DNA of 64,000 nt. Source: Candidatus Woesearchaeota archaeon. GTDB lineage: Archaea; Nanobdellota; Nanobdellia; Woesearchaeales; SKIA01. The position numbers and the translations under genes were made by a program. Positions 7,972 to 50,824 of this stretch are shown piece by piece. Positions within the stretch are counted from its first letter, which is position 1, and each line of letters opens with the position of its first letter. The notes below the pieces were generated by a model. The model had not been told where the DNA came from and did no database searches. It saw only the letters and a list, made by a program, of their open reading frames with translations. Location of the stretch: contig JBLKOP010000001.1 of NCBI GenBank assembly GCA_047602905.1, positions 26,773 through 90,772 on the forward strand. The letters run 5' to 3'.

Positions 7972-8556
7972 TTATGCTAACAGAACAGCAAGATACGCAG
8001 TAACAGAGAACTTCACAACACAACCAAGAACTAAAAACACAAACAACCGAAGCATGTTATAACGAGCAACACCCAAACCAAAGGTAAGAACAGGAGCAGG
8101 AACGAACGGAAGAACATTAGCAACAAACACATACACAGAACCATGAGCGTTTACTCTACGACGAAGACCATACATTTTCTTCGCACTCACCAAAGACAAC
8201 GCGATACGAGAAAGCTTCCAACCAATAACGTAACTAACCAAGTTACCAAGAACAAAACCAGCAACCATAGCAGCAACACTAGCTATAGGAGCAGAACCAG
8301 AAGAAACAGCCGTAAACAAGACAGCCTCTAACGGAACACCCAAGAAGAACAAGCCAGAAACAAACGATAAATACAGCAGCGTAGAAGCGCTTAAAGAAGA
8401 AAAATCCGGTGTAAGAGCAGAAAACCCTCCTCGCAACAACACAGCCAAAGCAACACCAACAACTACCAAACTCACACCAAGAGCAATGAGCCGAGGCTTT
8501 TTGTGCTCAGAAGTTAAGAACAAGTAACTCGTAGACATACACACTACACAAAACAA
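7972..8556 (-). CDS. DedA/VTT-family-like integral membrane protein
   Basis: Multiple TM helices; GNLVSYVIGWKLSR resembles DedA motif. Confidence 0.4.
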   Translation of the reverse strand: MFCVVCMSTSYLFLTSEHKKPRLIALGVSLVVVGVALAVLLRGGFSALTPDFSSLSASTLLYLSFVSGLFFLGVPLEAVLFTAVSSGSAPIASVAAMVAGFVLGNLVSYVIGWKLSRIALSLVSAKKMYGLRRRVNAHGSVYVFVANVLPFVPAPVLTFGLGVARYNMLRLFVFLVLGCVVKFSVTAYLAVLLA

Positions 8557-8607
8557 ACGTTTATAAGAACCTATCCATACAAAACACTGTATACGAGGTG
8601 TGAAGAA

Positions 8608-10320
8608 GTGAGTTTTTATAAGAGCAAAGACACAGAATACGCACTAAACAAAATCAAAGAAAGCGAAATAATATATGCTTCTATGGAGATAGGTCTTGTT
8701 AGCGAAGTAAAGACGTACAGCGGAGGACTAGGAGTGCTCGCAGGAGACACGCTCAGAAGCTGCGCAGACCTAGCACTACCAGTAACAGGAATTACCTTAC
8801 TATACAGAAAAGGCTATTTTGAGCAAATAATACACGACAAGCAACAACAAGAAGCAAGCGAGCCTTGGAACGTAGACGAATACACAACAGCACTCCCGCA
8901 AGCACGCGTACAACTCATTATTGAAGGACGAGAAGTCATTGTAGAGCCAAGAGTAGGAATCGTTGTGGGACATGAAGAAGACGTCGTTCCCGTACTCTTC
9001 TTAGACACAGACCTAGAAGAAAACGACGCTGCAGACAGAGAAATAACGAATTATTTGTACGGAGGAGACAACCGTATGCGCATAAAACAAGAAGCAATAC
9101 TTGGAATAGCAGGAAAACGAGTCTTGCGACGACTACAAGCAACCAACATCAACACGTTTCACATGAACGAAGGACACGCAGCACTAGCACCCGTAGAAGA
9201 CGCAAGGTACCTGAGTAAGTACTACGAGTTTAACACACCAAAAATCCAGGAGTTAGTACGCAGCATGCACGTATTCACGACACACACACCAATACCAGCA
9301 GGACACGACAAGTTCAGCTACGAACTCATCAAAGAAGTTCTAGGAGCAGAGGACGTAGCGTGGAAACACCTAGACTTAGCAGGTCATGAAGAATGCAACA
9401 TGACACAACTCGCACTCAACTTCAGCCGCTTCACAAACGCAGTAGCAAAGAAACACGCACAAGTAAGCAGAAAAATGTTTCCAGGATACGACATCAAAAG
9501 CGTAACAAACGGAGTACACCTAGGAGAATGGATGAGCCCACACATACAAGCACTTCTTGACGAAACAATGCCTAGCTGGAGACACGAACCAAGCATCTTA
9601 CAACACGCGTACAGAGTAATAGGGCCAGAACAAATACACGAAGCGCACACAAAAGCAAAACAAGACCTCCTAGACTTCGTTAAAGAAACAACAGGAATAC
9701 AACTCGATATGAACAAACTCACCGTAGGATTCGCAAGGCGCTTTGCACCCTACAAACGAGCAGACCTCATATTCACAGACATAAACCGCCTTTTAGAACT
9801 AGCAGAAGGAAAAATCCAGTTCGTATTCGCAGGAGAAGCACACCCAAAAGACCAAGCAGGAAAAGACATTATTCGACGAGTACTAGAGAAAGCAGAAGAG
9901 CTACGAGGAAGAATAGACGTCGCGTTCATACCCAACTACAACATGCACGTAGGAAAAGCCCTGGTAAGCGGCTGCGACTTATGGCTAAACAACCCCGTAC
10001 CACCAAAAGAAGCAAGCGGAACCAGCGGGATGAAAGCAGCAGCCAACGCAGTACCCAACCTCTCAACACTAGACGGCTGGTGGATAGAAGGAATAACCCA
10101 AGACCCACTAGCAGGATGGATCATACACCACCGCCACGACGGACGAGACGAGATAAGCCTGTATGAGCAACTCGAGCACATAACACGAGTGTATCACGAG
10201 CACAGAACAAGATGGAACGAGCACCAAGTACACGCACTAGCACTAGCAAGCTACTTTAACACGCACCGAATGGTACAAGAATACCTGGACAAAGCGTGGA
10301 GCCTAAAGATATACTCATAA
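8608..10320 (+). CDS. alpha-glucan (glycogen/maltodextrin) phosphorylase, short GT35 form
   Basis: PLP-site EASGTSGMKAAANAV; GGLGVLAGD near N-terminus; TATA about 30 bp upstream. Confidence 0.75.
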   Translation: MSFYKSKDTEYALNKIKESEIIYASMEIGLVSEVKTYSGGLGVLAGDTLRSCADLALPVTGITLLYRKGYFEQIIHDKQQQEASEPWNVDEYTTALPQARVQLIIEGREVIVEPRVGIVVGHEEDVVPVLFLDTDLEENDAADREITNYLYGGDNRMRIKQEAILGIAGKRVLRRLQATNINTFHMNEGHAALAPVEDARYLSKYYEFNTPKIQELVRSMHVFTTHTPIPAGHDKFSYELIKEVLGAEDVAWKHLDLAGHEECNMTQLALNFSRFTNAVAKKHAQVSRKMFPGYDIKSVTNGVHLGEWMSPHIQALLDETMPSWRHEPSILQHAYRVIGPEQIHEAHTKAKQDLLDFVKETTGIQLDMNKLTVGFARRFAPYKRADLIFTDINRLLELAEGKIQFVFAGEAHPKDQAGKDIIRRVLEKAEELRGRIDVAFIPNYNMHVGKALVSGCDLWLNNPVPPKEASGTSGMKAAANAVPNLSTLDGWWIEGITQDPLAGWIIHHRHDGRDEISLYEQLEHITRVYHEHRTRWNEHQVHALALASYFNTHRMVQEYLDKAWSLKIYS

Positions 10321-10344
10321 AGACTGCTTACTTTCTTTTGTACT

Positions 10345-11103
10345 ATGGAGTATGAAGCATTCATCAAAGAAGTATTTGAGCTAGTAACACAAAACATCCC
10401 GTACCCTATACGAGACGTAGAAGAAAAAGCAAGCAAGGAACTCGTTACCACAACAGACCTCGCAGTAGAGCAGCTCATACGAGAAGAAATTAAGAAAACA
10501 TATCCCGAACACGGAATACGAGGAGAGGAAGAAGAAGACTACAACGCAGCAAGCGAGTACCAATGGGTAATAGACCCCATAGACGGAACAACAAACTACG
10601 CACACAACATACCCGTTTTTTGCGTAGCAATAGCGCTCCTACACGACCAAGAAGTCATTGCAGCAGGAGTACACCAACCAATAACACAAGACGTCTACTT
10701 AGCAACGAGAGGGCGAGGAGCAACAAAAAACGGTGCGTTACTACGCGTACAAGAAACTCCTCTCTCAGAAGCACTCATAGGGTTTTGTCACGCAAACAAC
10801 CAAGAAGCAGTAGCGTGGATTACTCAAAGATATGAACGACTAAAGAACGCAACAAGAGACTTTAGAAGACTAGGAAGCGCGAACTTAGAACTCTGCATGG
10901 TAGCCACAGGAGACCTAGCAGGCTTTGTAGGATACGAAATACAACCATGGGACTTCTTAGCAGGATGCCTTATAGCAGCAGAAGCAGGCTGCACCATAAC
11001 CAACTTACAAGGAGGGTTGTGGGAGGACAAAAACGTACGCAGCGTACTAGCAGCACCCAAGAACCTTCATGAAGAACTCACGCAACACATAAATACTTCG
11101 TAA
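10345..11103 (+). CDS. inositol monophosphatase / FBPase-family phosphatase
   Basis: WVIDPIDGTTNYAHNIPVF metal-binding motif. Confidence 0.75.
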   Translation: MEYEAFIKEVFELVTQNIPYPIRDVEEKASKELVTTTDLAVEQLIREEIKKTYPEHGIRGEEEEDYNAASEYQWVIDPIDGTTNYAHNIPVFCVAIALLHDQEVIAAGVHQPITQDVYLATRGRGATKNGALLRVQETPLSEALIGFCHANNQEAVAWITQRYERLKNATRDFRRLGSANLELCMVATGDLAGFVGYEIQPWDFLAGCLIAAEAGCTITNLQGGLWEDKNVRSVLAAPKNLHEELTQHINTS

Positions 11104-11117
11104 AGAAACACACCTGT

Positions 11118-11729
11118 ATGAACCGTTGGTTACTCACAGCAGGACTTGTCGGCTTATTAGCAACATCCACAGCACAAGCACAAACAGCAGTCTACACCGA
11201 TACAGAAACCCACAGACTATACCTTGTAGACCAGAGAAACACAGGAGAGTACGAACTAGGAGTAGCTATTAATCATAAAGAACCAATCGCTAGCATACTA
11301 TACCCAGGATCAGAAAGCATAAACGTTTGGATAAGCGCAAACACGCTAGAGGAAGCCTTACAAGCACCAGACATATTTACACAATACTTCTCGCAAGCAA
11401 CACGAGTAGATAACACCCTATTTGCAGAGAAACAAGGAATACGAGACGCACCAACATACGCTGTACGCGTAGAAGACAAAATATACTTCTTCTTAGACCT
11501 TAACGAGGACGGCAAACTACAACGGTTCATAGACGCAGTACAAGTAGTGCAGATTAATAAACAAGAAGATAACACAAGCGTTTTTTGGAACGGACTAGAA
11601 CCAAACCACCCAGAACCAGTACTCCGAGGAGACCCAAGAGAAGGGCCGGTACTGTTTTATCACTTAACACCAGAAAACACTGCTCACATACCTGAATACG
11701 TTACACCTATAAACACAAGCACCCCATAA
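11118..11729 (+). CDS. secreted hypothetical protein
   Basis: Sec signal peptide MNRWLLTAGLVGLLATSTAQAQTA. Confidence 0.45.
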   Translation: MNRWLLTAGLVGLLATSTAQAQTAVYTDTETHRLYLVDQRNTGEYELGVAINHKEPIASILYPGSESINVWISANTLEEALQAPDIFTQYFSQATRVDNTLFAEKQGIRDAPTYAVRVEDKIYFFLDLNEDGKLQRFIDAVQVVQINKQEDNTSVFWNGLEPNHPEPVLRGDPREGPVLFYHLTPENTAHIPEYVTPINTSTP

Positions 11730-11737
11730 GCACATAC

Positions 11738-12295
11738 ATGGCAGTCACACCCAGCAACATGGTACCGTTAAGAAGCAAAGCACACCCGTTTACTCTTTTA
11801 GACGTCGTTAGTGGTACGAAAAAAAGCTATGAAGAACTGCGAGAAGAGAACGGAGTAGTAATTATGTTCATCTGCAACCACTGCCCCTTTGTCAAACACA
11901 TAAACCAAGGACTCGTACGAGTAGCCAACCAGTACCAGAAAAAAGGAATACGCTTCGTAGCTATTAGTAGCAACGACGCAAAAAACTACCCAGAAGACAG
12001 CCCAGAAAACATGAAAGAAGTAGCGAAGAAACAACAATACCCGTTTGTGTACTTGTATGACGAAACACAAGAAGTAGCTAAGAAGTACAAAGCAGCGTGC
12101 ACACCAGACTTCTTTGTTTATGATAGTAACGACGAACTCTTTTACCGAGGACAACTCGATGAGAGCAGACCAGGAAACGACATACCAGTAACCACAAGCC
12201 ACCTACAAGAAGCACTCAACAAACTCCTTGCAGGAGAGCAACCGCCAGAAGAACAAATCCCAAGTGCTGGTTGCGGAATTAAGTGGAAGAACTAA
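11738..12295 (+). CDS. thioredoxin-fold thiol-disulfide oxidoreductase family protein
   Basis: CNHCPF (CxxC) motif in thioredoxin-like context. Confidence 0.55.
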   Translation: MAVTPSNMVPLRSKAHPFTLLDVVSGTKKSYEELREENGVVIMFICNHCPFVKHINQGLVRVANQYQKKGIRFVAISSNDAKNYPEDSPENMKEVAKKQQYPFVYLYDETQEVAKKYKAACTPDFFVYDSNDELFYRGQLDESRPGNDIPVTTSHLQEALNKLLAGEQPPEEQIPSAGCGIKWKN

Positions 12296-12324
12296 CAAGA
12301 CCGAAAACCTTCTGCTAACAGCAC

Positions 12325-12894
12325 TCATCCAAGAACATACATCAACCAAGGACGCTTAACAACAAAACGCGTCTTTCTTAGCCAAGCATCAAGACCAAGA
12401 ACTTGACCAGCACCAAAAGAAGAAATACCAAACAATAACATAACATACACTATGTGCTCATTAACGACAAACCCGTGCTCAAGAGGTAGGAACGCAAGAA
12501 GACCTCCTTGCAGAGCAGCCAAATAAAACAAGAACATAAGAATAGCAGCAAACAACGCGCACAAACGAGTAAATAAACCAAGAATAAGACCTAGACCAGT
12601 AGCTGTTAAACCAATAATAACCAACCAATCAACTAATACGCTACCAGCAAGACTTGCAAACACAGAAACAAATGGGTTAGCAGGATGAATTGCGTGCAGC
12701 AAATACCCACTAGCACTCCACGAAGAACTAAAAAGCTTATCAAGACCTCCAGCAAGCAAAATCCAACCAATGGCTACGCGCATAAGAACAAGAGAGTAAC
12801 CAACAGCTTGGTGAGCGTACGGAAAAGACACTTCTTTACCAAACACCTCTGTCTGAACACTATCTGAGCGCATACACGTATCAATGAAGAACAA
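12325..12894 (-). CDS. DoxX-like membrane protein
   Basis: Four TM helices, DoxX-like pattern; coding strand G+T-rich. Confidence 0.4.
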   Translation of the reverse strand: MFFIDTCMRSDSVQTEVFGKEVSFPYAHQAVGYSLVLMRVAIGWILLAGGLDKLFSSSWSASGYLLHAIHPANPFVSVFASLAGSVLVDWLVIIGLTATGLGLILGLFTRLCALFAAILMFLFYLAALQGGLLAFLPLEHGFVVNEHIVYVMLLFGISSFGAGQVLGLDAWLRKTRFVVKRPWLMYVLG

Positions 12895-12966
12895 GCTATA
12901 AAAATCTCTCGGTTACCAACAAGTAACTACAACAACCATATAAAGAACGCCTAAAAACCTTACTGT

Positions 12967-14061
12967 ATGCTTCGACACATCATTATCAGCGACACGCATG
13001 CACCTGACCAAATACGACTCATCCTAGAGCACGTACAGCAACGAGTACTTAAAGAAAGCGCTGTAGATGCGATAGTCATTAACGGAGACCTCCTAGGAGT
13101 GTTTAGTATGCAAGGAAGCAACAAACACAAACAAGAAGACATTAGCAGAGAAGAAAAAGAATCGTACCTACAAGAAGCAGCGCCGAAATGGCATAAAAAA
13201 CACGGTATGAACACGCAACTAACCGTAGAAAACGTGCTAGAATACGCACAGGAGCGCTACAAGTGGGTGGAGAAGACTTTAAGAGAAACAAGCAAGCTAG
13301 CAACAACTATTTGGAACATGGGAAACCACGAAAGCCCAGAGCACTTCTTAGTACTGCAAGAACTCCCCTTCTTACTGGAGCAACCAATGAACTTCTCCGT
13401 ACCAGACGAGCAACTACAAACAATTTTTTACAAACACGAACAAGCACTAGCAGTACTAGAACTCACTAACAACTTCGTGTACATACGAGACAAACCATAC
13501 ATACAAGAAGACACGCTCATCATAGGAATACCAGGAGAAAGCCACGCAGCAATAGGAAGTAGCAAACCAGCAAGAAAACAAGAAGAACAAACCCTTGCTG
13601 TACTTAAGAAAGCAAGCAAGAAACTACCTGAGGTAACCAACGCAATTATTTACAACCACACACAAGGAAGCTACGACAAAAACACCAGCACGTTTATGCC
13701 AGCAAGCACGGCAGCAAAAGAATTCATGAACCAAACAAGCAACCTACAACACCTTATTTGGGTGCAAAGCCACAACCACTGGAGCTACACACAACACCTA
13801 CACAAAGAAAACACTCATTACGTACTTAATAACGCAGGACTACACAACGCAATCTACAACCTCCTAGAACTCGATGAAGAACTAACCATTTATGACGTGG
13901 ACGCAAACAAAAACACCATAACCAAACTACAACAAAGCAACCAAGAAATAACAGGAGGAGACGCTTTAGCAATTATTAAAAGAAACTACCCCAACTACAT
14001 GGACGTATACCTACACAGAAAAATGCGCCTAGACGCAACAAAACAACCAAGAACTTCCTAA
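12967..14061 (+). CDS. calcineurin-like metallophosphoesterase
   Basis: Motifs DTH, GDLLG, GNHE. Confidence 0.6.
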   Translation: MLRHIIISDTHAPDQIRLILEHVQQRVLKESAVDAIVINGDLLGVFSMQGSNKHKQEDISREEKESYLQEAAPKWHKKHGMNTQLTVENVLEYAQERYKWVEKTLRETSKLATTIWNMGNHESPEHFLVLQELPFLLEQPMNFSVPDEQLQTIFYKHEQALAVLELTNNFVYIRDKPYIQEDTLIIGIPGESHAAIGSSKPARKQEEQTLAVLKKASKKLPEVTNAIIYNHTQGSYDKNTSTFMPASTAAKEFMNQTSNLQHLIWVQSHNHWSYTQHLHKENTHYVLNNAGLHNAIYNLLELDEELTIYDVDANKNTITKLQQSNQEITGGDALAIIKRNYPNYMDVYLHRKMRLDATKQPRTS

Positions 14062-14513
14062 TCAGAATCAACCCACAAAAACAACCCCTTACTCTGAAGC
14101 CAAACAAACCACTTAGCGCGATCAACAACTAACTCGCCAAGAACAGCAAACGGAAGAGTAACTAAGAACACAATCCAAACCACTTGTAACGTAACTGGCT
14201 CACCAGTAAGTAAGGTAATAACAATTAAGTCCTCAACAACACCCATAACCATACCAAACACCAAAAACTCAAGAAACACCTCCAAACGCTGCAAACGAGC
14301 ACTTTTTGCGTGAGGAATAAGCGAGTGCCTATCAACAATTAATTCACCAAGAGCAGCAAACGGAACAACCACTAAAAACGAAATAACAACAGCACGCAAA
14401 TCAATAGCGTGACTCGTAGCGAAATGAATAGCAATCAAGTTCTCAATAAGACCAATAACTACACCAAACACTAAGAAACTCACAAAAATCTTTACTTGCT
14501 TACGAGACCACAC
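14058..14513 (-). CDS. membrane protein with internal tandem duplication
   Basis: Two homologous halves (FLVFGVVIGLIENLIAIHF...ALGELIVDR versus FLVFGMVMGVVEDLIVITL...VLGELVVDR). Confidence 0.4.
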   Translation of the reverse strand: MWSRKQVKIFVSFLVFGVVIGLIENLIAIHFATSHAIDLRAVVISFLVVVPFAALGELIVDRHSLIPHAKSARLQRLEVFLEFLVFGMVMGVVEDLIVITLLTGEPVTLQVVWIVFLVTLPFAVLGELVVDRAKWFVWLQSKGLFLWVDSD

Positions 14514-14587: not shown

Positions 14588-15550
14588 CTACGAGGAGCAG
14601 TAGAAATATGAGCAAACTTGCTTTAGGTGTGTGAATAGTTGCTTTTTGAATTCTTGATATTCTTGTTTGTCTATTGTTTGAAGTGATAAGTACTGTACGT
14701 CTTCTTGTGTATGTAATTCTTGATTTTGTAATTGCGTGCAGTTTTTTGTGAGCGTTTCTGTGTAGTTTTGCAGTGTTCGCTTGCTTGCTTGAATCTTTCT
14801 TATTATTTGTTGTACGGGTATTTCAAATAGGTCTAGTTGTTTGTTAAGCAAATACATGTCAAGTATGTCTCGCTCTTTTGGTTGTTCTCGTGTGAGTATT
14901 GCTCGAAATTTTTCTAGAGCTATTTCTGTTTTTGGATAGCACGGAATTGTTGGGCTGTGCAGAGTTACTCCAATAACTTGTGCTTGTTCTTGCACGCCTA
15001 GAATATCTGGAAGGTTTGGAACGGTTATTTGTACGGGCTTATTTTGAAGTTCTTCGGTAAAACTTATTTCTAACTTAATACTCTGTTTTTGGTTTGTTAT
15101 TGTAGAGATATAATGCATGTGCAGAACGTATATCGCTCGGCTATTACGTAGCTGTACGTAACGCTTGTTTGTTCTGTCATGAACGAAGTCAAGTCCTGTT
15201 CTTTGAGCTATAAGTTCTATTTCGTCAAAGAGTTCTTTGACGAGGTGTTTTATTACTCTTTCTTGTTGTTGAATGGATTCTAACTCTCGTATATCGTTGC
15301 ATTGCGGGTGTGTGAAGTCAAGATCTTCGCTGATGCGATGATACTTCAGATATGCTTTTGTGAGAAGAGTCCCTCCTTTAAACACAAGAGTTTGTAACCG
15401 TTGTATCTCCTTCTTTTTTGCTGCTTGTGCGAGTTCTGAAAGAAACAAGCTGAGTCGGTAGTCCTTCTCAAACTGTTCTTCTCCTGTGGTATATTGTCCT
15501 TGTTTTTTGAGGAATTGAATATATCGTTGTAATCGTTTTTGTGTAATCAT
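14588..15550 (-). CDS. AbiEii-like nucleotidyltransferase toxin (type IV TA / abortive infection)
   Basis: FKGGTLLTKAYLKYHRISEDLDF motif; 4-bp ATGA overlap with upstream AbiEi-like gene. Confidence 0.6.
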   Translation of the reverse strand: MITQKRLQRYIQFLKKQGQYTTGEEQFEKDYRLSLFLSELAQAAKKKEIQRLQTLVFKGGTLLTKAYLKYHRISEDLDFTHPQCNDIRELESIQQQERVIKHLVKELFDEIELIAQRTGLDFVHDRTNKRYVQLRNSRAIYVLHMHYISTITNQKQSIKLEISFTEELQNKPVQITVPNLPDILGVQEQAQVIGVTLHSPTIPCYPKTEIALEKFRAILTREQPKERDILDMYLLNKQLDLFEIPVQQIIRKIQASKRTLQNYTETLTKNCTQLQNQELHTQEDVQYLSLQTIDKQEYQEFKKQLFTHLKQVCSYFYCSS

Positions 15551-16158
15551 AGGAGTTGTTGTGCTCGTTTCTGAACAGCTAGAGGGTATTTTGTGAGGTA
15601 CGGATTATTATTTGGTATTTTCTGTATAAGTTCTTGAGGGGGCTGTTCTTTATAATATACAAAATCCATGAACGTTTTTTCTGTATTACTATAAAACATT
15701 GTTAGCTGGTTTTTCGTCTTAATCTTGTTAATCCCAAAACCAAATAATTTTTTTTTGAGTTTACGAAATTCAATTTTTGTTCCTTGAACTGTACGTGTTC
15801 GAGAAAGTTTGTTATTCAGAATGACTATTGTGTTATGTCCTTGCCAGACGACGTTGTTTCTTTCTAAAGCGGTTGTAAGTCCAAGATACCAATCAATTTT
15901 GAGCTTGTTAAGTACCACAGAAGTCATTTCTAGTGCTGTGTAGTTGGTAAAATCAAATCTGTGCTCCTCAGTATCGCAAATATAGTAATATCCATTTAGG
16001 ATATAGGTAACCCAACCCTGTTTTCGTAATTGATATATGATGCGTTTAGGATATGCTTTATCCTGAAATAACACTTCTAATTTATCTCTAGAAATAATTC
16101 TTGTCTTATTTTGCTCTAGATAGTGTAAAAGAATGTTTTTAGGAGCTGTGAAATCCAT
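15547..16158 (-). CDS. AbiEi-like antitoxin / transcriptional regulator
   Basis: Position and size upstream of AbiEii-like gene; wHTH-like N-terminus. Confidence 0.5.
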   Translation of the reverse strand: MDFTAPKNILLHYLEQNKTRIISRDKLEVLFQDKAYPKRIIYQLRKQGWVTYILNGYYYICDTEEHRFDFTNYTALEMTSVVLNKLKIDWYLGLTTALERNNVVWQGHNTIVILNNKLSRTRTVQGTKIEFRKLKKKLFGFGINKIKTKNQLTMFYSNTEKTFMDFVYYKEQPPQELIQKIPNNNPYLTKYPLAVQKRAQQLL

Positions 16159-16428: not shown

Positions 16429-16503
16429 TGCCCCGTCCGGGATTTGAACCCGGGTTACCGCCTTGAAAGGGCGGAGTGATTGGCCGGACTACACTAACGG
16501 GGC
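16429..16503 (-). tRNA. tRNA-Glu (anticodon TTC)
   Basis: Cloverleaf folds by hand: acceptor GCCCCGT/ACGGGGC, anticodon stem CCGCC/GGCGG with loop CTTTCAA; TATA about 30 bp upstream on minus strand. Confidence 0.8.
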
Positions 16504-18171: not shown

Positions 18172-18293
18172 TGAGCCCAGAGGGATTTGAACCCTCAACC
18201 ACTGGTACACTCAGAGACCTAAGTGCTAACACTAAGGAAATTCCTTATTGCCTCATATAAGACCAGCGCTCTACCAGGTTGAGCTATGGGCTC
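18172..18293 (-). tRNA. tRNA-Ile (anticodon TAT) with a 48-nt intron at the canonical 37/38 position
   Basis: Acceptor GAGCCCA/TGGGCTC, D-stem GCTC/GAGC, anticodon stem CTGGT/ACCAG, loop CTTATA then intron TGAGGCAATAAGGAATTTCCTTAGTGTTAGCACTTAGGTCTCTGAGTG, T-arm GAGGG-TTCAAAT-CCCTC. Confidence 0.7.
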
Positions 18294-20001: not shown

Positions 20002-20652
20002 ATGCCAGAAAAAGCACCTCCTAAAGCATCACTAAAACAACACTTCATAGACACTACTTCACTTGCTTCAGAATCAAACCCTCCCTTTGCAGTTGTGGAA
20101 CTCGTATCAGGAATGAGTGCAGCAGCGTCACTTGGAGCAAAAATAAGTGCAACAACACTAGGATACTTGGGACTTGCAAGCCTATACTCAAAAGGAAGAG
20201 ACACCTACATGAAATACTTCTCAATTCCAGAAGATAAGCGAGCAAGACATGATGTGGCATATACGTTTGGCTTTAACGCAGCATTTCTTCCTGTACTATA
20301 CACAGCAATGACGCTTATAGCAGGAGAACCTGTAGATCCAAAAACTATTGGGCTAGCATCTCTTACAGGATCATTTCTTGGAGCAGCAAACGGGCCATTT
20401 CTTGGCTACGCAATAGATGTAGGTAGAGACCTAACAGGACTTTCTGAATGCAACAGGAAAACGTATCCTGACTTTGTTAAACGACAACCACCAAAAATAA
20501 AAAAAGGAATATATGCAGGTCTCGTGGCTGCAAGCATAGCAACACTAGGGGCACTCTACTCAAACGCAGACAAAATACCAACAATCCCTTCGCTATTTGA
20601 GCAAACACAAACAATAGATGCAAAACTAACTTCGTTTACCAACGATTTCTAA
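20002..20652 (+). CDS. hypothetical protein
   Basis: ORF; Gly/Ala-rich, partly hydrophobic. Confidence 0.3.
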   Translation: MPEKAPPKASLKQHFIDTTSLASESNPPFAVVELVSGMSAAASLGAKISATTLGYLGLASLYSKGRDTYMKYFSIPEDKRARHDVAYTFGFNAAFLPVLYTAMTLIAGEPVDPKTIGLASLTGSFLGAANGPFLGYAIDVGRDLTGLSECNRKTYPDFVKRQPPKIKKGIYAGLVAASIATLGALYSNADKIPTIPSLFEQTQTIDAKLTSFTNDF

Positions 20653-20694
20653 AAACAAAGCCTTATAAAAGAAGTGCGATTTGCACGTAGTTAT

Positions 20695-20793
20695 ATGAAG
20701 AGAAGTTCTCGACGTTGGAAAAAGAAAGGACAGATGCGCTGGAAATGGCAGCGCAAGCGCATGAAGAAAGAAAAGCGCAGAAGAAGAAGACGA
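20695..20793 (+). CDS. rpl41e: ribosomal protein L41e (32 aa), absent from ORF track
   Basis: Hand translation MKRSSRRWKKKGQMRWKWQRKRMKKEKRRRRR matches the archaeal/eukaryal L41e basic peptide; TATA about 20 bp upstream. Confidence 0.7.
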
Positions 20794-20854
20794 TAAGCAC
20801 TCTTCACACTACTTATTTTGCTACGCACACCAATAGATTGCTTTAGGTTCTTAT

Positions 20855-20878
20855 TGAAGAAGGTGCGTTTCTAAAATG
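20855..20878 (+). repeat. direct repeat copy 1 (TGAAGAAGGTGCGTTTCTAAAATG)
   Basis: 18-nt identical core plus AAATG shared with 22292-22315; retains coding potential HFRNAPSS on minus strand. Confidence 0.7.
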
Positions 20879-20898
20879 GTGTTTTTGGGTTAACGAAG

Positions 20899-21666
20899 CT
20901 ATTTGTTTGCTTGTAGGCGTTCTTTTACTTCTGAGAGAGTAAAGTACTTCGCATTTACTTGCATAACCTCATGAAAAGAAACTGGCTCTTGTAGAAGAGC
21001 TACCATGTCCTCATCCCATCTGTTGTAGAGTTTTTTTGCTTGCGAAAACATACGTATAACTAGCTCATCAGTGTTTTCATGCGCGCACTTTGTTGTTACT
21101 AATTGCATTGATATAGGAAGTTGGTGCTTGATTATTTGGTATATATCGTAGTGGTCTCGTGGCTTGTTTCGTTGTATAGTTGCAGCAACCTTTTCTGCGA
21201 TAAGCTCTTGTTTATCTAGACAAAATACTTCGTAAACAGGTATGTTCTCGTAGTAGTGAGATATTTGTTGTTTTTGCGGCTTCTTAAGTAGTGTTGCGTT
21301 CTCATTAAGATCAACGTATATTGTGTCTGTTGTTTGCGTGAATGTTTCGTACTCGCAGATGATACGAACAAACCCTTTCACGTCTTTTCCTGTTGTTATT
21401 GCTTGTATGAACGGTATTTGCCTGAGTAGTTGTTGTATGTCTTTGCGTGCTTGTTTGAGATTTGTTACAGTAAAATCTATGTCTTCTGAGAGCCTTGCAT
21501 GATTAAGAAATATTTTGTTTAGTGCAGTTCCTCCCTTAAAGAAAATGTTTTTTACATCTTTGATTGCGTAGAGTACTTGTGTGAGGTAGTAGTCTTTGAG
21601 GATTAGTCGCTGTGCGAATCCTGTTTTTGCTGCTGTTTGTATTATACGTTTCTTTTCTTCATCCAT
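20899..21666 (-). CDS. AbiEii-like nucleotidyltransferase toxin, second copy
   Basis: FFKGGTALNKIFLNHARLSEDIDF; start taken at MDEEKK because the annotated 90-aa N-terminal extension is low-complexity and overlaps the upstream gene. Confidence 0.6.
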   Translation of the reverse strand: MDEEKKRIIQTAAKTGFAQRLILKDYYLTQVLYAIKDVKNIFFKGGTALNKIFLNHARLSEDIDFTVTNLKQARKDIQQLLRQIPFIQAITTGKDVKGFVRIICEYETFTQTTDTIYVDLNENATLLKKPQKQQISHYYENIPVYEVFCLDKQELIAEKVAATIQRNKPRDHYDIYQIIKHQLPISMQLVTTKCAHENTDELVIRMFSQAKKLYNRWDEDMVALLQEPVSFHEVMQVNAKYFTLSEVKERLQANK

Positions 21667-22223
21667 TGTTTGGTTTTTTCTTTTGGTTCTATTCGTATGT
21701 TGTGTCCTTGTATTGTGTTGTTTTGTGCTTCTTGGAGTCTTTTTTTTGTCGTTTTTTTGAATTTGTATCTCGTGTTTAGTATTGTTGTTGTGTTGTTTCT
21801 TTTGTTTGTGTAAATATCTACTTGTTGAGGTATTTGGTCTGTTAGATTGTAATAATTTGCTGCTGCCCACCCTCCTATGAAGTAGTCTTGTGAGTTCATC
21901 ATCTCGTCTGCTATAATAAATTCGTGCTCGTACCATGTGTTGTTTGGTGCTTGTATTGGTAGGAGATAGTATTTGTTTTTGTTCAGTTTGAGGATGCGCT
22001 TTTTTTGTAGAAGACGGTGTATTATGTAATAGAGTTGTTGTTTGTTTGTTGCGTGGTGTTTGATGTCTTCTTGTGTGAAGAAGTACTGGTTGTTGAACTC
22101 AAGTTCTTGAATGATGCGTACTTCTCGTTGAGAAAGAGAGGAAATATCATTATTTTTTGACATAATCAAAGATAAGTGATGTTTATTTATAAATGCAGGG
22201 GTTTTTTGTGTCTGTGCAAACAT
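21642..22223 (-). CDS. AbiEi-like antitoxin, second copy
   Basis: Upstream partner of AbiEii-like gene, 25-bp overlap; TATA about 29 bp upstream. Confidence 0.45.
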   Translation of the reverse strand: MFAQTQKTPAFINKHHLSLIMSKNNDISSLSQREVRIIQELEFNNQYFFTQEDIKHHATNKQQLYYIIHRLLQKKRILKLNKNKYYLLPIQAPNNTWYEHEFIIADEMMNSQDYFIGGWAAANYYNLTDQIPQQVDIYTNKRNNTTTILNTRYKFKKTTKKRLQEAQNNTIQGHNIRIEPKEKTKQWMKKRNV

Positions 22224-22288
22224 ACGCTGAACAAAGAAATACTCATTTATAACGCGTTTTGCTGTATGTGTCCAGTGTGTCCAGTGGT

Positions 22289-22573
22289 TTATGAAGAAGG
22301 TGCGTTTCTGAAATGATTTTGTTGCTGCTTTCTTCGCTGAATAAGTCGTTGTAACTTAGCATTCATCTTTGCGCGAGTATCGCAGCCTTGAAGCTCTTTG
22401 TGCTCGGTATGCTTAAGTAAGGTATTATCTCCAAACGAATCTCTTAGACCATCCCGGTAATCATCCCAATCGCTATACGTAGGGGTTATGAAGTAGTTAG
22501 TTAATTGGTGTGTAGGAATTGTTTGTTGTGGCGTTACGTACCCATTTCTTCGCCGATCCTTTTTTGTGACCAT
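22289..22573 (-). CDS. hypothetical protein (94 aa)
   Basis: ORF; C-terminus ...NHFRNAPSS encoded within repeat copy 2. Confidence 0.3.
   Translation of the reverse strand: MVTKKDRRRNGYVTPQQTIPTHQLTNYFITPTYSDWDDYRDGLRDSFGDNTLLKHTEHKELQGCDTRAKMNAKLQRLIQRRKQQQNHFRNAPSS
22292..22315 (+). repeat. direct repeat copy 2 (TGAAGAAGGTGCGTTTCTGAAATG), overlaps 3' end of gene 22289-22573
   Basis: See copy 1; the two copies bracket the second AbiEi/AbiEii module. Confidence 0.7.
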
Positions 22574-22783
22574 GAACTCATATTAGCAAAACAAGTCTTT
22601 TATGTGTTATGAATTACTTCTGGAGTATTTTCGTTTTTTACGGAAACAATTCGTTTTTCTTAGCGAAGAATATTTAAATATCAACACGCACTATATATGT
22701 ATGGTGACAGGCGGTGCCTGCTCGCAAGAGTAAATCTGTGATTATTCACAGAACGCCGCAAAAGTATTCCCTGTCTTTGCCTC

Positions 22784-22996
22784 GTGCAAAGGCAAGTATC
22801 TTATATTTCCAAGACAAGAATATCTGTTTTTATTGATGGAGCTAACTTCTACTATGGGGTTCGTTCAATCAATTCACGCTATACAGACTTCAAATTTGAC
22901 TTTGCTGCATACGTACAAGATCTTTTTGTATCATGTTCTCGTTTAGATTCTTGGTTACTAATGATAAAGGGATTAGTTCTGACTTGGTTCGTGTAG
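22784..22996 (+). CDS. NYN/LabA-like domain fragment (possible gene remnant)
   Basis: ISVFIDGANFYYG matches N-terminal NYN motif of the full-length paralog at 23668-24243; only 70 aa. Confidence 0.35.
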   Translation: MQRQVSYISKTRISVFIDGANFYYGVRSINSRYTDFKFDFAAYVQDLFVSCSRLDSWLLMIKGLVLTWFV

Positions 22997-23245
22997 TGTC
23001 AAGTTCAGCTCTGTAAGGAGGTCTCGTTGTGACTTCTCATATGCGTTAATTACTGCTTCTCGATCAATGGAGTTTGTTTGTCCAGCTCCTTTTTGTAGTG
23101 CGAGTAGCTCTAGCTGTTTTCGTTTGAGGTGCTCGCGTAATGCTTCTAGTATGAGTTCTTGACGGTTAAGATAGCCGCAGTGAGTGGTGATTGCTTGTGT
23201 TTGTGTGTGCAGGTGTTTAGGTATGGTGAGTTTTACGACAGGCAT
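22973..23245 (-). CDS. ribbon-helix-helix (CopG/Arc-like) protein
   Basis: MPVVKLTIPKHLHTQ...ELILEALREHL; paralog of 27929-28192. Confidence 0.45.
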   Translation of the reverse strand: MPVVKLTIPKHLHTQTQAITTHCGYLNRQELILEALREHLKRKQLELLALQKGAGQTNSIDREAVINAYEKSQRDLLTELNLTLHEPSQN

Positions 23246-23667
23246 AGTACTTGATAGTACTTTGAAGTACTTAAATGTTTTCTCTTGTTTGTTATGTTCT
23301 TTGCGATGCAGGCTTGCTACGTGCGCTCATATAGCTTGTTTAGTGGGTGAGTTGTTGTGTTGAAGTCTTTTCTGTATAATAAAAAGATTTTAATCGTGAT
23401 TGTATAAAAGATTGTGTTCTTCGAATTAACAGATGATCTTCCTTGGTCTGGGAAGTCTGTGTATAGTTTCTATTATATGAGAAAGTTATAAAGATATCTC
23501 TTTATTTCTCGAAATTTGTTTTAGGTGTTGCTTTGTTAGCAAGAGTATTCCGTGTTTTTGAAGTATTTACGAAAAAGCATACATAAGGCTTATAAATTCC
23601 TGTGTGCTTTGTATACATAACATGATCCCTATTGATCCTACGTGGGTCAATAGATGTTTTTATTTTT

Positions 23668-24243
23668 ATGAAACAACACACACTAGTCTTTATAGATGCA
23701 GGCTTCTTATCCAAGCTCTCAAAGCACTTTGGGAAAGGAAAGCACATTTCCTTTGATATAGAGGCCTTTTCAAAAAACCTTGCTAAACAAGAGAACTTGT
23801 TTTGTAAACATATTTTTTACTATACGGCGCCGCCTTTTCAAAGCACTCCTCCTTTAGAGAATGAACGAAGAAGAAAAGAAAACTACGATGGTTTTATCCA
23901 AGCGCTATCAGCATATAAAACAATTACTGTTCGAGAAGGAAGAGTGCAAAAATTAGTTACGCCTACAACTACTGAGTACAAACAAAAAGGAGTGGATACG
24001 CTACTAGTAATGGATCTTATGAGGACGCCGCTGAAATACCCAGAAATACAACAAATACTCTTAATTGCGTGCGATAGTGATTTTGTACCGGTAATTACTG
24101 ACTTAAAGCAGTACGGGATACAAACAATATTGTACACGTACTTTGATAAAAAAAGACGCTCTCCCTTTTCAACCTCAAACGAGCTCATACAATCAGTGCA
24201 TAAATATGTACAGTTATCAAAAAACTCTTTTACTCAACTATAG
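23668..24243 (+). CDS. NYN-domain (LabA-like, PIN-fold) putative ribonuclease
   Basis: LVFIDAGFL ... KGVDTLLVMDLM ... IACDSDFVPVI pattern of the NYN domain; AT-rich composition unlike neighbours. Confidence 0.55.
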   Translation: MKQHTLVFIDAGFLSKLSKHFGKGKHISFDIEAFSKNLAKQENLFCKHIFYYTAPPFQSTPPLENERRRKENYDGFIQALSAYKTITVREGRVQKLVTPTTTEYKQKGVDTLLVMDLMRTPLKYPEIQQILLIACDSDFVPVITDLKQYGIQTILYTYFDKKRRSPFSTSNELIQSVHKYVQLSKNSFTQL

Positions 24244-24339
24244 GTGTGTTTTTTGTATCCTACTTATCAACAACTTTCTTAATAAAAATAGTTATATAAG
24301 TGCGTGATCTCCTGGTCTGGAAATCTCGCAATACTAGGT

Positions 24340-24640
24340 AGGTGTGCTTTGTTTATATGTTTTTGTATGTATTTTTTCTTTGTATCGTACTAAATACGTA
24401 TATTTGTTTGTTTTGTGTTTTTTGTTTCTTCTTTGTGTACGTTTATTCAGTTTGTTCTTAGCGCTTCTTTTTTGCTTATTCTTGTTTCTTAGCTTGTTTG
24501 TTTGTTTGTTTTTGTTGTTTTCTTCTTTTTTTTGCTTTTTTGTACGAAAACGTTTTTAGGTGTTTTTGTTTTTTCTTCTTTTTTCTTCTTTTTTTTGTTG
24601 GTTTCTTCTTTTCGGGTTTTCATACGTTATATGATTTTGT
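24340..24640. repeat. T/G-rich low-complexity tract with (TTTG)n and TTTTCTTCTTTT repeats
   Basis: Seen directly: about 300 bp with T over 55 percent on plus strand, microsatellite-like units. Confidence 0.7.
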
Positions 24641-25002
24641 ACGTGTTATTCATAGCGCTTATAAAGAGAAACCCCTGATTCGTTTCATGATGCAAAAAGA
24701 TACACATCATAAGCTATTTGTCACCGCACAGAAACAAAAGGTCTCTGGTGAGGAATTTGAGCAGTACAGACCCTGTACTCGCAACATAAGTTTTCGTTCG
24801 CGAAAACACGACGAAACGCTTATAAACCAAGTCGTATCCAAAGCATCACACAGACTCACCAGTCTGCAACGAAGTGTGCAAGCACAGGTCACTAACGTGT
24901 ACGCGTTTTTGAGTGCAACTTGCATGCAAAAAGCAAGTCAGACACGGTGCCTGAACGCACAAAGAGGCGTTCTTGTACAAAAAATAGAGGTCTAAAAAGA
25001 AA

Positions 25003-30984: not shown

Positions 30985-32458
<1,474 letters not shown>

Positions 32459-32564
32459 TCTTTTTTTTTCAACAAAGAAAATCAAGAAAACGATGAACAA
32501 GTTCATCAAACAAAAACACGTTGCGTGTCACTCAAACCCTTTCCCATTCACCAACCACACGATC

Positions 32565-32637
32565 GGGCTCTTAGCTCAGTTGGTAGAGCGCCCGCTTTGC
32601 AAGCGGGAGGCCACGGGTTCGACTCCCGTAGAGTCCA
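32565..32637 (+). tRNA. tRNA-Ala (anticodon TGC) in the 16S-23S spacer
   Basis: GGGCTCT acceptor with G3:U70, anticodon loop CTTTGCAAG. Confidence 0.85.
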
Positions 32638-32877
32638 TTTACGCCACGCGCGTCAAAAAAGACCGTGTGGTATAATGAAAAACCGATCACGACGTAACAA
32701 TCGTGATCTCAGACAGAGATGCAAGTTCACTGCAGATTGTACCTACAATCAACGTACCAAGCAGTGTTCTTCACAACGAATTGCATTCATGACGTCACGC
32801 ATACACAAACCACAATATCCTGGAAATAACACCAAATTTTAGTAACGCAAGTTACTAAAAGACGCTAAACACTACAC

Positions 32878-35765
32878 TAGGTGTTTAGCGGATTGGAGGA
32901 ATGTTTCTTGGTGGATAGCTTGGCTTATCAAATGCGATGAAGGACGTGGCAAGCTGCGAAAAGGTTGGGCGAGGCGCAAGCAGCCTACGAACCCAACATA
33001 TCCGAATGCGACATCGCCAAAGAATACCGACAGGTAAGCAAACGCGGGGAATTGAAACGTCTTAGTACCCGCAGGAAAAGAAATCAACAGAGATACCCTT
33101 ATTAGCAGCGAGCGAAAAGGGCAAAGGGCAAACTGAATCCTCTGCAGAAATGCAGTTGGAAATGTAGTGTATAGGGACCTCACAACGGTACCTCTCTTTG
33201 AGATATGAAGTCCGCTGGAAAGCGGCAGCACAGAGGGTGAAACTCCCGTAATAGAATCAAAGAAGGACCAGAGGAATCCCGGAGTAAGGCGTCTTGGTTT
33301 TGGCGTCTGAAGATAGGAGTCATCAACTTCTAACCCTAAATAATCGATAAGTCCGATAGAGAACAAGTACCGTGAGGGAAAGCTGAAAAGAACCCGTGAC
33401 AGGGAATGAAAAGACCTTGAAACCAAGAAATTATAGTGAAGTACGCAACTAACGAGGTTGTGTACTGTTCGTTTTGAATAACGAGCCCGGGAGTGCGTCT
33501 CTGTGGCGAGGAAAACTCGACACGAGTGATCCGAAGCGAAAGCGACAGCTTGCAGCTTGCAAGAAGCGAGGTATGAAAGTGCCTGGAGTCACAGGGATTC
33601 GACCCGAAACCGGTCGAACTAGGCGTGGGTAGGGTGAAGCGTCGGTAAAACGACGTGGAGGCCCGAAGAGGTGCTGTGAACAAGCGTTCTCCTAACCTGC
33701 GTCTAGGGGTGAAAAGCCAATCGAGACCGGTGATAGCTGGTTCCTACCAAAGTTGACCGTAGTCAAGCCTTGAGCGAGACCGTATTCGCGGTAGAGATAC
33801 GGATTGGGGATGCAGGGGAAGAAATTCCTCGGTTCCTTGTCCAACTCCGAATGCGAATACATCGTAGACCTCAGGAGACGGTGGCACGGGGTAAGCCTGT
33901 GTCACGAGAGGGAAACAACCCAGATGAATGTTAAGGTCCCAAAGTACTGTTTAAGTGTTAACGGGTGAAGATTGTTGGTGTCCATAGACAGCGAGGAGGT
34001 TGGCTTAGAAGCAGCCACCCTATAATAAGTGCGTAACAGCTTACTTGTCAAGGGCGCCAGTATCGAAAATGGACGGGGCTAAATCAGTCACCGATACATT
34101 CAGCAGAAATGCGGTAGGTAGGCGTAGTGGTCGGGTAGAAGCGTGTTCGTGAGATCACGTGGACTAGCCACTAACGAAAATCCGGGTAATAGTAGGATCT
34201 GAGCATAGTGAGAATCTATGTCACCGAAAGGGCAAGGGTTCCTTGACACTGTACATCAGTTAAGGGTTAGTCGATCCTAATTCCCATCCTAACTGGATGA
34301 GAGAAAGAAAGGGAAACAGGTTAATATTCCTGTACCAAAGTACTAGACGGCGACGTGAAGTCGTATAGCCGACGCTTTGGGCTAAGAAAACACAGTCAAA
34401 TGTGTTAAGCAAGACATGTCTTTGGAGTGCTGTCATGGCGAGAAAAAGACAAAATTGTGATGAGTGCTTCGTATGAAGCATTTTTCTGATGCCTAGAGCC
34501 CATGAAAAGGAAATACGAAGCGACGTACTTTGATCGTACCCAGAACCGGCACAGGTGCCCCTAGGTTAGAAGCCTCAGGTGTGAAAGGATACTGTAGTTA
34601 AGGGAATTCGGCAAATTAGCCACGTGCCTTCGGCATAAGTGGTCCCTGCGCTTGTAGCAATGCGAGTGCAGGGTGCAATAACAAAGGAGTTCCGACTGTT
34701 TAACAAAAACTTAACTGGCTGCTAACCCGCAAGGGCTTGTATAGCCGGTGACGTCTGCCCAGTGCCAATACCTAAAAGTCCCGTTCAAGGGGCCTAAGGG
34801 CTGGTAAACGGCGGGGGTAACTATAACTCTCTTAAGGTAGCGAAATGCCTTGCCGTTTAATTGACGGCCTGCATGAATGGCGTAACGAGATCTCCACTGT
34901 CCCTAACTACACCCTTCCGAAAATTCCTCCTGGTGCAAAGGCCAGGGACTTCCAGTGGGAAGTGAAGACCCCGTGAAACTTTACTGTAACCTGTTGCTGT
35001 GATGTGGCTTTTGACGTGAAGGCTAGGTAGTAGCAATCGAAGGGCGCGCGCTAGCGCGTCTGGATGCGAAAGATGGGACACTACCCTTCAACAACTGCAT
35101 TACTTACCTCCAAAGAGAGGGACACCAGCAGGCGGACAGTTTGGCTGGGATGGCACACCGTCGAAAATGTATCGATGGTGCCCAAAGGTTGGCTCAGACG
35201 GGTCAGAAATCCGTCGTAGAGTGCAAGAGCAAAAGCCAGCCTAACTGGGATCTCAACATGACAGATCTCAGTACAGAAATGTAGGTCTAGCGAACCCCTG
35301 TAGCTCCTTGATGGGGCTCAGGTATGACCGAAAAGTTACTCCGGGGATAACAGAGTTGTCCCGCCCGAGAGCTCGTATCGACGGCGGGGCTTGCTACATC
35401 GATGTCGGCTCTTCCTATCCTGGCCGTGCAGAAGCGGCCAAGGGTGAGGGTGTTCACCTATTAAAAGGGATCGTGAGCTGGGTTCAGAACGCTGTGAGGC
35501 AGTTTGTTTATTATCTACTGGAAGTGTGGACTATCTGAGAGGAAGGATCGTTTAGTACGAGAGGAACGATGGTTCGTCGCCACTGGTCTATCGGTTGTCT
35601 TACAAGGCAGGCCGAGCAGCTACGCGATATCTGATAAGCGCTGAAAGCATCTAAGTGCGAAGCAGTCCTCGAAAAGAGATAGCACAACTCCGCGCAGAAC
35701 ACGCGGTTGATGGGACTGGGATGTACGCACCAAGCTTTTGCGAGGTGTTTAGTCCGCGGTTTCCA
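32878..35765 (+). rRNA. 23S rRNA (about 2.9 kb; ends approximate)
   Basis: GATGAAGGACGTGGCAAGCTGCGAAAAG near 5' end; sarcin-ricin loop region GTACGAGAGGAAC present; GC-rich relative to flanks. Confidence 0.85.
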
Positions 35766-35913
35766 ACAGGTTGGTTACCAATCTTTTGGTTTTAGTTCCT
35801 TTTGGATATTGTGGTTTGTGTATGCGTGACTTCATTTTTTTTCTTATTTTTTTGTTGTTTCTTCGGTTTTTTCTTCGTTACTTTTGTAAAGGCGTGTTTC
35901 TTTTTTTCTTGTT

Positions 35914-50323: not shown

Positions 50324-50395
50324 GAAGGAAAGAATTGTTTAAAAGAGTTAGCGTACAACAAAGCTCACTGGACACACTGGACATGCACGGCCAAG

Positions 50396-50824
50396 ATGCT
50401 TATAAGTAAGAAGAAGTATGTTTCTTACATGGCTTCAGAAACCCAAACCCGAACTGAAAACGAACAATACATACAACCACTCATGGACAAAGCATTCTTT
50501 GGCAAAGATAACTGCCTAACCGTGCAGCTGCGAGCAAAGAACGTGTACTTTAAATGGGGAAAAAAAGTTGGTGAGCAATGGGAGTGGAAGAACGTAAAGT
50601 TTAGTGATGTCGAGCTAGGAGATATTCTTCGATTATTACAAGGAGACGTAAGCGAGGTAAAGTTTTATCATTCCTTTAACGAGGAGAGCACACAAATATG
50701 GGGTTCTCGACTCAAAGACAAAGTAGTACTTAAAGCAGCAGACTACACGAAAGGACTAAGCGCAGGAGAGCAGAAAGTCCTAGAAGTACTGCTCACACAC
50801 GCTATTTGGATGATGAACGTATAA
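50396..50824 (+). CDS. hypothetical protein
   Basis: ORF; annotated N-terminal extension overlaps lysS on opposite strand, so start moved to MLISKK. Confidence 0.3.
   Translation: MLISKKKYVSYMASETQTRTENEQYIQPLMDKAFFGKDNCLTVQLRAKNVYFKWGKKVGEQWEWKNVKFSDVELGDILRLLQGDVSEVKFYHSFNEESTQIWGSRLKDKVVLKAADYTKGLSAGEQKVLEVLLTHAIWMMNV

Follow-up and report, generated by a model that had tools for sequence, protein, structure and literature searches.

How does a two-gene abortive-infection module come to lie between two copies of the 3' end of the gene beside it? The question is raised by a 64,000-nucleotide (nt) stretch of a Candidatus Woesearchaeota archaeon genome (assembly GCA_047602905.1, contig JBLKOP010000001.1, positions 26,773 to 90,772 of the forward strand; herein the window, whose first letter is position 1), in which an AbiEi/AbiEii gene pair is bracketed by a direct repeat that duplicates the end of p94, a neighbouring gene encoding 94 amino acids (aa). 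An earlier note on this DNA had read the repeats as a target-site duplication and the pair as a small mobile defence cassette caught with its insertion scar. The duplication, its position and its gene content can be read directly from the window, and the same architecture recurs in related genomes; we consider it probable, if not strongly so, that the AbiEi/AbiEii pair is an accessory cassette, brought into the chromosome through a recombination event in the 3'-distal end of p94.

The repeat pair and the module between its copies

The repeat is a 24-mer, TGAAGAAGGTGCGTTTCT(A/G)AAATG, which stands on the plus strand at 20855-20878 and at 22292-22315 in the same orientation with a spacing of 1437 bp; the two copies are identical at 23 of 24 positions and differ only in an A at 20873 versus a G at 22310. 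With up to three mismatches allowed there is no further match in the 64-kb window, and there is none in 100 dinucleotide-preserving shuffles (0 expected by chance), so that the 24-bp direct repeats described in the earlier note, about 1.44 kb apart, are well founded. A repeat finder extends the pair at lower identity to 33 nt (20855-20887 versus 22292-22324, 88%, spacing again 1437), and past these 24-33 nt local alignments of the flanks on either side are no better than shuffled sequence. When the ends of open reading frames (ORFs) across the whole window were scanned for a repeat up to 4 kb downstream, the end of p94 ranked first (score 22, against 16 for the next). The features that carry the argument are listed from p94 to the far side of the module, with other loci referred to by their L numbers.

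22289-22573, minus strand: p94, 94 aa, ending ...QQNHFRNAPSS and a stop; an uncharacterised family with a conserved core and a hypervariable C-terminal tail
22292-22315, minus strand: direct repeat copy 2 (attL-like), the last eight codons (HFRNAPSS) of p94, with the stop codon TAA at 22289-22291 directly after
22201-22288, minus strand: conserved region downstream of p94, homologous to the region after p94 at locus L130 and more weakly to that at L021
22183-22192, minus strand: second TATA-like box, TTTATAAATA, 20 nt upstream of the AbiEi ATG at 22163
21642-22163, minus strand: AbiEi-type antitoxin, 173 aa from ATG 22163 (PADLOC AbiEi, 1.1e-24)
20899-21669, minus strand: AbiEii nucleotidyltransferase toxin, 256 aa (Pfam PF08843, 1.9e-28; PADLOC AbiEii, 7.7e-38)
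20855-20878, minus strand: direct repeat copy 1 (attR-like), 20 nt past the AbiEii stop, with a weaker match to 20887
20843-20854, minus strand: putative displaced tail, ATA AGA ACC TAA, three codons and a stop in frame with copy 1

The earlier note was also right that copy 2 forms the C-terminus of p94 (HFRNAPSS-stop) and that copy 1 still reads HFRNAPSS on the minus strand. Indeed, the frame of p94 is kept in copy 1, where the minus strand reads ...QKHHFRNAPSSIRT and a stop, that is, QKHHFRNAPSS and then IRT-stop; the DNA following copy 1 is ATAAGAACCTAAAGC... We infer that 20843-20854 is the original tail and stop codon of p94, displaced from its gene (...PSSIRT-stop). On the plus strand a 20-codon Arg/Lys-rich ORF, MRWKWQRKRMKKEKRRRRRR (20734-20796), which is uncalled in public assemblies and which we take to resemble ribosomal protein L41e, converges on copy 1.

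Between the copies lie only the AbiEi and AbiEii genes and 128 nt upstream of AbiEi, all on the minus strand. The two genes overlap by 28 nt with the antitoxin first and form a bicistronic unit. In the AbiE family the toxin, AbiEii, is a GTP-dependent nucleotidyltransferase that arrests growth when a phage infects, and AbiEi is the winged-helix antitoxin, which also acts as autorepressor; the pair serves in abortive infection and as a stabilising module. The PF08843 match of the present AbiEii spans profile positions 9-222 of 238, and the GG...DID nucleotidyltransferase motif is present (FKGGTALNKIFLNHARLSEDIDF); given this motif and near-full-length domain matches, the toxin appears to be intact. 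The antitoxin is short (173 aa), aligns only to the N-terminal ~150 positions of the 252-position PADLOC model and has no Pfam match at E<=0.01; an upstream in-frame ATG at 22223 would lengthen it by 20 codons. AbiEii has 689 homologs, and homologous pairs elsewhere have 166-aa partners. The cassette has a GC content of 0.35-0.39, compared with 0.41-0.48 in flanking core genes, a low GC that covers the whole islet at 20.8-24.6 kb and extends beyond the cassette alone.

The described AbiE systems with which we compare this module are reportedly those of Lactococcus plasmid pNP40 and of Streptococcus agalactiae, the latter said to be the subject of Dy et al. 2014. Gene order, gene overlap, the PF08843 GG...DxD motif and the PADLOC matches are shared with these type IV toxin-antitoxin (TA) and abortive-infection modules; the present one differs in its DPANN host, in its shorter AbiEi (173 aa) and in being known from sequence alone. 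The repeats are not a general property of such modules: none flank three homologous AbiE loci or the first AbiE module of the window, and since these other pairs lack them, the repeat is a property of the site and not of AbiE modules. That first AbiEi/AbiEii module (14588-16158, minus strand; 203 and 320 aa) is separated by 270 nt from the tRNA-Glu gene upstream of it (16429-16503, minus strand) and has no flanking direct repeats above background and no duplicated tRNA end.

The gene at the insertion site belongs to a family of small basic proteins conserved in Woesearchaeota and Nanoarchaeota (DPANN), with seven relatives in the protein collection, 19 loci in GTDB species genomes (all of them Nanoarchaeota/Woesearchaeota-type metagenome-assembled genomes, MAGs) and 79 in JGI metagenomes. 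Across 24 aligned p94 sequences 16 columns are invariant, and past an RR(K) motif the tails are wholly different in length and sequence. The protein has no match in Pfam, NCBIfam, PADLOC or PDB, its AlphaFold model is poor (predicted local distance difference test score 56), and the family is absent from viral contigs. A survey of domains encoded within 1.5 kb on each side of p94 (loci L026-L123) found NTP_transf_2, HicA/B, PIN_2, HEPN and DUF2283 commonly downstream, and MazE/AbrB-like domains (11 of 150 ORFs), together with PIN, Fic and ParE, upstream. A small DNA-binding gene often lies directly upstream of p94.

Related scars at other gene ends

The 3' end of each p94 homolog was probed against its own locus, and the clearest recurrence is an apparent array in a Woesearchaeota MAG (L032, CAYNBR010000022.1), whose p94 is 41% identical to the one described here. 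A 35-39-nt unit over its p94 stop is present three times, at 8283-8321, at 9379-9417 (97% identity) and at 10121-10159 (27 nt exact), and the units set apart a Fic gene, a PIN_2 gene accompanied by a small antitoxin-like ORF, and a further PIN_2 gene. This array (8283-10161) runs off the contig end. At L112 a stretch of about 57 nt from the 3' end of p94 recurs 1.09 kb downstream with 88% identity, the two copies enclosing a Methyltransf_11 gene and a small Cys-rich ORF, and at L065 a repeat of about 52 nt, starting 22 nt past the p94 stop, encloses 1.4 kb of small ORFs. Orthologous or nearly identical loci also differ at precisely this position. The near-identical L028 and L029 are distinguished by a 67-bp indel exactly at the p94 3' end (L028 5812-5878), and L064 is about 410 bp longer there than L057 (8270-8694 versus 8270-8290), which brings in a new stop codon and displaces the former tail; long repeats were seen to flank neither of these two indels. 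At L131 and L074 a TA gene of the PIN or UPF0175 type overlaps the p94 3' end.

A second anchor gene came to light in the control analysis, again in L057 and L064, which are orthologous regions with 75-85% nucleotide identity. In L064, the empty state (9943-10363), a PadR/TRASH regulator gene and a 167-aa gene converge directly on each other. In L057, the occupied state (10350-14155), about 3.4 kb of extra DNA separate the same two orthologs, none of which is present in L064, and the last 110-140 nt of the PadR/TRASH gene are present three times: the order is Macro-domain and SnoaL-like genes, a 139-nt copy of the PadR gene end, a 123-aa ORF, a 111-nt copy, an MNT and HEPN pair, and the intact gene. 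The 123-aa ORF has no Pfam match, and its homolog in L037 matches ParE_toxin. As read from the two sequences, this pair shows TA cassettes apparently entering at a gene 3' end and duplicating that end each time.

Weighing an integration at the end of p94

We hypothesize that the incoming DNA was most likely a small circle bearing a short segment similar to the 3' end of p94, and that a crossover with the resident p94 within the 24-nt identical core would have left that core on both sides. Copy 2 would then be the attL-like junction, at which sequence from the element, with a new TAA, now completes the resident p94, and copy 1 the attR-like junction, where element DNA that includes a degraded p94-like stretch (CAAAAACAC) meets the core and, past it, the original IRT-stop tail; the ancestral stop of p94 would sit 46 nt from the stop of the convergent L41e-like mini-ORF. 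The cassette itself is predicted to encode the defence module only, and catalysis would fall to a site-specific recombinase acting in trans or to host homologous recombination (Campbell-type). Repeat length is 24-33 nt in the window and 35-39, ~52, ~57 or 110-140 nt at the other loci, and because of this variable length we lean slightly towards host homologous integration of the Campbell type. In this scenario we infer which way the event ran, its circular intermediate and its enzyme.

A number of results weigh against such an integration, or at least against a recent one. The insert holds AbiEi and AbiEii only, with no integrase, transposase or Cas1; tblastn and phmmer searches of the window with the archaeal integrase of L027, together with Pfam on ten larger ORFs, returned no tyrosine recombinase or IntI; and an integrase lies nearby in only one of about 100 p94 loci (L027), around which no att-like repeats were found. 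The population is likewise uniform. The p94 gene and its neighbours are annotated in an NCBI Candidatus Woesearchaeota MAG (locus tags ACMXYD_00285-00300), and exactly the same proteins (p94 and a 216-aa neighbour) are encoded on 20 Logan contigs, which come from two sets of sequencing runs and match the window at 99.8% identity or more. No empty site occurs among these 20 same-population contigs, all of which, where they reach the module, carry it (counted as complete or cut by the contig end), and the 90%-identity cluster of p94 is a single sequence, with no alternative-tail allele on record. Searches of genome and metagenome collections with an alignment of p94 failed to recover the species of the window itself, the flanking 216-aa gene yields a single remote homolog on a 634-bp contig, and p94 homologs are otherwise found on contigs that are too short or in different contexts. 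The two closest relatives of p94 (74% and 69% identity) have a helix-turn-helix and nucleotidyltransferase gene (an MNT-type TA gene) in the position held here by AbiE, and the closest homolog of AbiEii is only 55% identical, so that there is no sign of recent spread. Finally, gene-end repeats were found at 3 of 52 p94 ends and at 17 of 801 other ORF ends, an enrichment of about 2.8-fold that is not significant (Fisher p = 0.12; some of the 17 control ends belong to the same arrays), and the case for recurrence or a hot spot consequently rests on the individual loci and not on statistics. One strong control match, at L053, was set aside as a pair of SET-domain paralogs with the same palindrome after each, not an insertion.

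The left boundary of the module presents a further difficulty. The region at 22201-22288 comprises two copies of CACTGGACA (22269-22286), 16 nt, a TATA-like TTATAAAT (22245-22252), 21 nt and ATGTTTGCACAG... (ATG 22221-22223), a layout that would fit an archaeal leaderless promoter. Its ATG opens the 20-codon in-frame extension of AbiEi, and in L130 and L021 the same start is fused to an MNT gene. Significant homology links the 78 nt that follow the p94 stop to the p94-downstream region of L130 (score 47, shuffle maximum 32); the homology stops at about 22201, just ahead of the second TATA-like box, which is probably the cassette's own promoter. The arrangement of CACTGGACA, 16 nt and a TATA-like box is found after the p94 homologs of both L021 and L130, and the full motif (two copies of CACTGGACA, 16 nt, TTATAA) is present at exactly two places in the window (expected number 0), at 22245-22286 on the minus strand and at 50366-50405 on the plus strand. 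The latter copy, 28 kb away, lies upstream of an uncharacterised 131-aa gene (50429-50824) that is divergent from a tRNA-synthetase-like gene, and the motif is probably the operator and promoter for some regulator. The L130 homology and the chromosomal copy of the motif together count against the integration as drawn above: the promoter piece may be resident DNA controlled by a host factor, and the true left boundary, with the start of the AbiE module proper, may lie at about 22200. Alternatively, cassettes with different cargo share a promoter arm. The simple attL/attR picture does not explain the L130 homology inside copy 2; the question of the boundary alters the limits and history of the insert, not the verdict of a recombination scar from cassette acquisition at the end of p94.

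These observations lend some weight to a different history, unlikely in our view, in which p94, the TGGACA/TATA promoter and the short ATG leader form a resident docking site where TA modules are swapped at about 22200, and copy 1 is the remnant of a second unit of p94 3' end and promoter, either imported or left behind by deletion of a cassette. It would account for the L130 homology, which runs from the p94 stop and breaks directly upstream of the second TATA box and AbiEi, for the MNT-type genes joined to the same leader in L130 and L021, for the repeat unit of L032, which spans the p94 3' end to ATGTTTGTGCA, the same start motif, and for the recurrence of the CACTGGACA/TTATAA motif before the chromosomal gene at 50429. 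However, the part duplicated in the window is 24-33 nt of the p94 end only and does not include the promoter, the L032 similarity downstream of the stop is not statistically significant, and an extra deletion ending just after the 24-mer would be required. Improbable, too, is a local duplication with no mobile element, by which part of p94 or a paralog decayed to the 24-33-nt remnant while AbiE, an old resident, stood in between. Copy 1 does read as a p94-like tail (QKHHFRNAPSS), and no recombinase, empty site or close AbiE relative was found; but 23 of 24 identical positions in a non-coding remnant argue for a recent event, the more so as p94 homologs have strongly diverged at this end, no trace of p94 lies upstream of the remnant, and analogous loci show an insertion against an empty-site relative.

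Classical transposition, the origin that the earlier note had proposed, we regard as very improbable. A discrete insert flanked by direct repeats is what an element resembling an insertion sequence, a miniature inverted-repeat transposable element or a casposon would produce if it carried AbiE and made a 24-bp target-site duplication; however, no terminal inverted repeats lie inside the repeats (the repeat finder reports none pairing the two insert ends), no transposase or Cas1 is present in the insert or was detected in the window, and the analogous duplications are 35-140 nt long and vary in length. To our knowledge the known transposase duplications are shorter than 24-33 nt. Without inverted repeats or a transposase, and with repeats this long and variable, a target-site duplication does not fit. 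We give hardly any credence to an integron-type origin, in which the repeats would be attC-like or the locus an integrase-less attC cluster as in Nanoarchaeota. Integrons are known from archaea, Nanoarchaeota among them, and integron arrays often contain TA cassettes (PMC9668308); L032 has the look of an array. The repeats are nevertheless plain copies of a neighbouring gene end and not imperfect palindromes; both repeat regions of the window fold, on both strands, no better than shuffled DNA (z -1.5 to +0.9), as do two of the three L032 units, and no IntI-like gene was found in the 64-kb window. Scarcely credible, finally, is chance or a shared functional motif such as a terminator that follows many genes, which the earlier note had itself raised. 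Copy 1 does contain a TTTT run downstream of AbiEii, but the 24-mer occurs only twice in 64 kb where no occurrence is expected, and one of the two is coding sequence of p94; neither repeat region forms a stable hairpin, and the 24-mer has no match in viral contigs. Rfam has no match over 20600-22800.

What survives of the earlier note is an insertion scar at the end of p94, borne out by a real 3'-end duplication, a displaced tail, lower GC and recurrence, although of an att or homologous-recombination type. That the repeats enclose exactly the AbiE pair is true in that only the AbiE genes and a promoter lie inside, and inexact for the ~80 nt inside copy 2 that are homologous to L130. The image of a mobile cassette caught in the act is not borne out, given an insertion present in all spanning contigs, a single p94 allele, an AbiEii at 55% identity and no recombinase; the empty sites in relatives to which the note had pointed were not found for this locus, the analogous pair being L064/L057 at the PadR gene, and its cognate recombinase was not detected in the window.

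The AbiE module and p94 lie in a low-GC islet at 20800-24650 (0.27-0.40, with 0.42-0.48 around it), which also contains the following features.

22784-22996, plus strand: apparent N-terminal fragment of an NYN-domain gene
22973-23245, minus strand: 90-aa ribbon-helix-helix protein
23632-24243, plus strand: 203-aa NYN-domain gene
24344-24620: T-rich low-complexity stretch

The ends of population contigs (loci L002-L020, window 20928-24546) cluster in this AbiE/p94/NYN islet, at about 21121-21152, 21323, 21767, 21973-21997 and 23651 (four times), and none fall at the 24-mers; this clustering may hint at strain-level microdiversity or a drop in coverage. Elsewhere the window contains an rRNA operon (30986-35835; 16S at 30986-32456, tRNA-Ala, 23S at 32888-35786) in which a 32-nt inverted repeat (97%; 32789-32820 and 35804-35835), probably a processing stem, flanks the 23S gene. 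Rfam adds two tRNA genes of ~120 nt that ARAGORN missed (18172-18293, minus strand; 57588-57705, plus strand), both presumably containing introns. The whole window shows a strong coding-strand asymmetry, its genes being A/C-rich on the sense strand; minus-strand genes consequently appear as T/G-rich runs on the plus strand, which gives many spurious low-complexity families in the repeat finder.

Known integrated elements and the spread of defence genes in DPANN archaea

The att repeats of archaeal integrated elements arise by recombination in the 3'-distal part of a gene, which receives a new stop from the element, and arrays form when the site is used again (PMC6563490); for Crenarchaeota, Krupovic et al. 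2019, on Thaumarchaeota, cite att sites of 29-69 bp (PMC6563490). The locus described here resembles these elements in its flanking direct repeats, one of them over the 3' end of a conserved gene, in its new stop and displaced tail, and, in L032 and L057, in tandem arrays built by site re-use. It differs in scale and content, since archaeal integrated elements are typically several kb or more and usually carry their own tyrosine integrase, whereas the present insert is a 1.4-kb TA/defence pair with no recombinase, and also in that no empty site was found for it. As such it is a minimal, recombinase-less, TA-only integrated cassette in a DPANN archaeon and a variant of known integrated elements.

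Three bacterial or broader groups of small elements offer further comparison. Streptococcal cis-mobilizable elements (CIMEs) are reportedly integrase-less segments with attL/attR-type repeats at a gene 3' end, which form arrays by integration into a flanking att site. They are bacterial deletion derivatives of integrative conjugative elements and rely on the integrase of a neighbour; no such partner was seen here. The pdif modules of Acinetobacter are likewise said to be small and recombinase-less, often to consist of TA pairs between short sites, and to be moved by a host enzyme. Their 28-bp sites are dyad-symmetric, recombined by XerC/XerD and inverted in orientation, whereas the repeats here are direct and without dyad symmetry. 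Integron cassettes and integrase-less attC clusters, the latter including archaeal examples (Ghaly et al. 2022, PMC9668308), are alike in comprising one or two genes, often TA genes, in arrays split by short repeats beside a fixed anchor. Their attC sites, however, are structured imperfect palindromes recombined by IntI, whereas the present repeats have no such structure and simply copy the 3' end of the anchor gene, and no IntI was found.

A broader idea, speculative and in our estimate rather doubtful, is that in DPANN archaea recombinase-less mini-cassettes of 0.7-1.5 kb, each carrying a copy of the 3' end of an anchor gene (p94 or PadR/TRASH), insert serially and so build integron-like arrays free of attC and IntI. 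Such serial insertion may proceed by host recombination or by a recombinase acting in trans and may represent an undescribed route of acquiring defence and TA genes, of which the AbiE module would be a single-cassette example. If the repeat merely marks a decayed integrated element, it is an ordinary insertion scar. Defence and TA genes are known to pass from genome to genome, but little is understood of how they do so in DPANN archaea, whose genomes are tiny and poor in recombinases; were the broader idea true, insertion of cassettes at gene 3' ends would account for the variable defence islets of these archaea, would explain the hypervariable tails of some of their conserved small proteins, and would make a gene end repeated 0.7-3 kb downstream a simple signature for accessory cassettes in MAGs.

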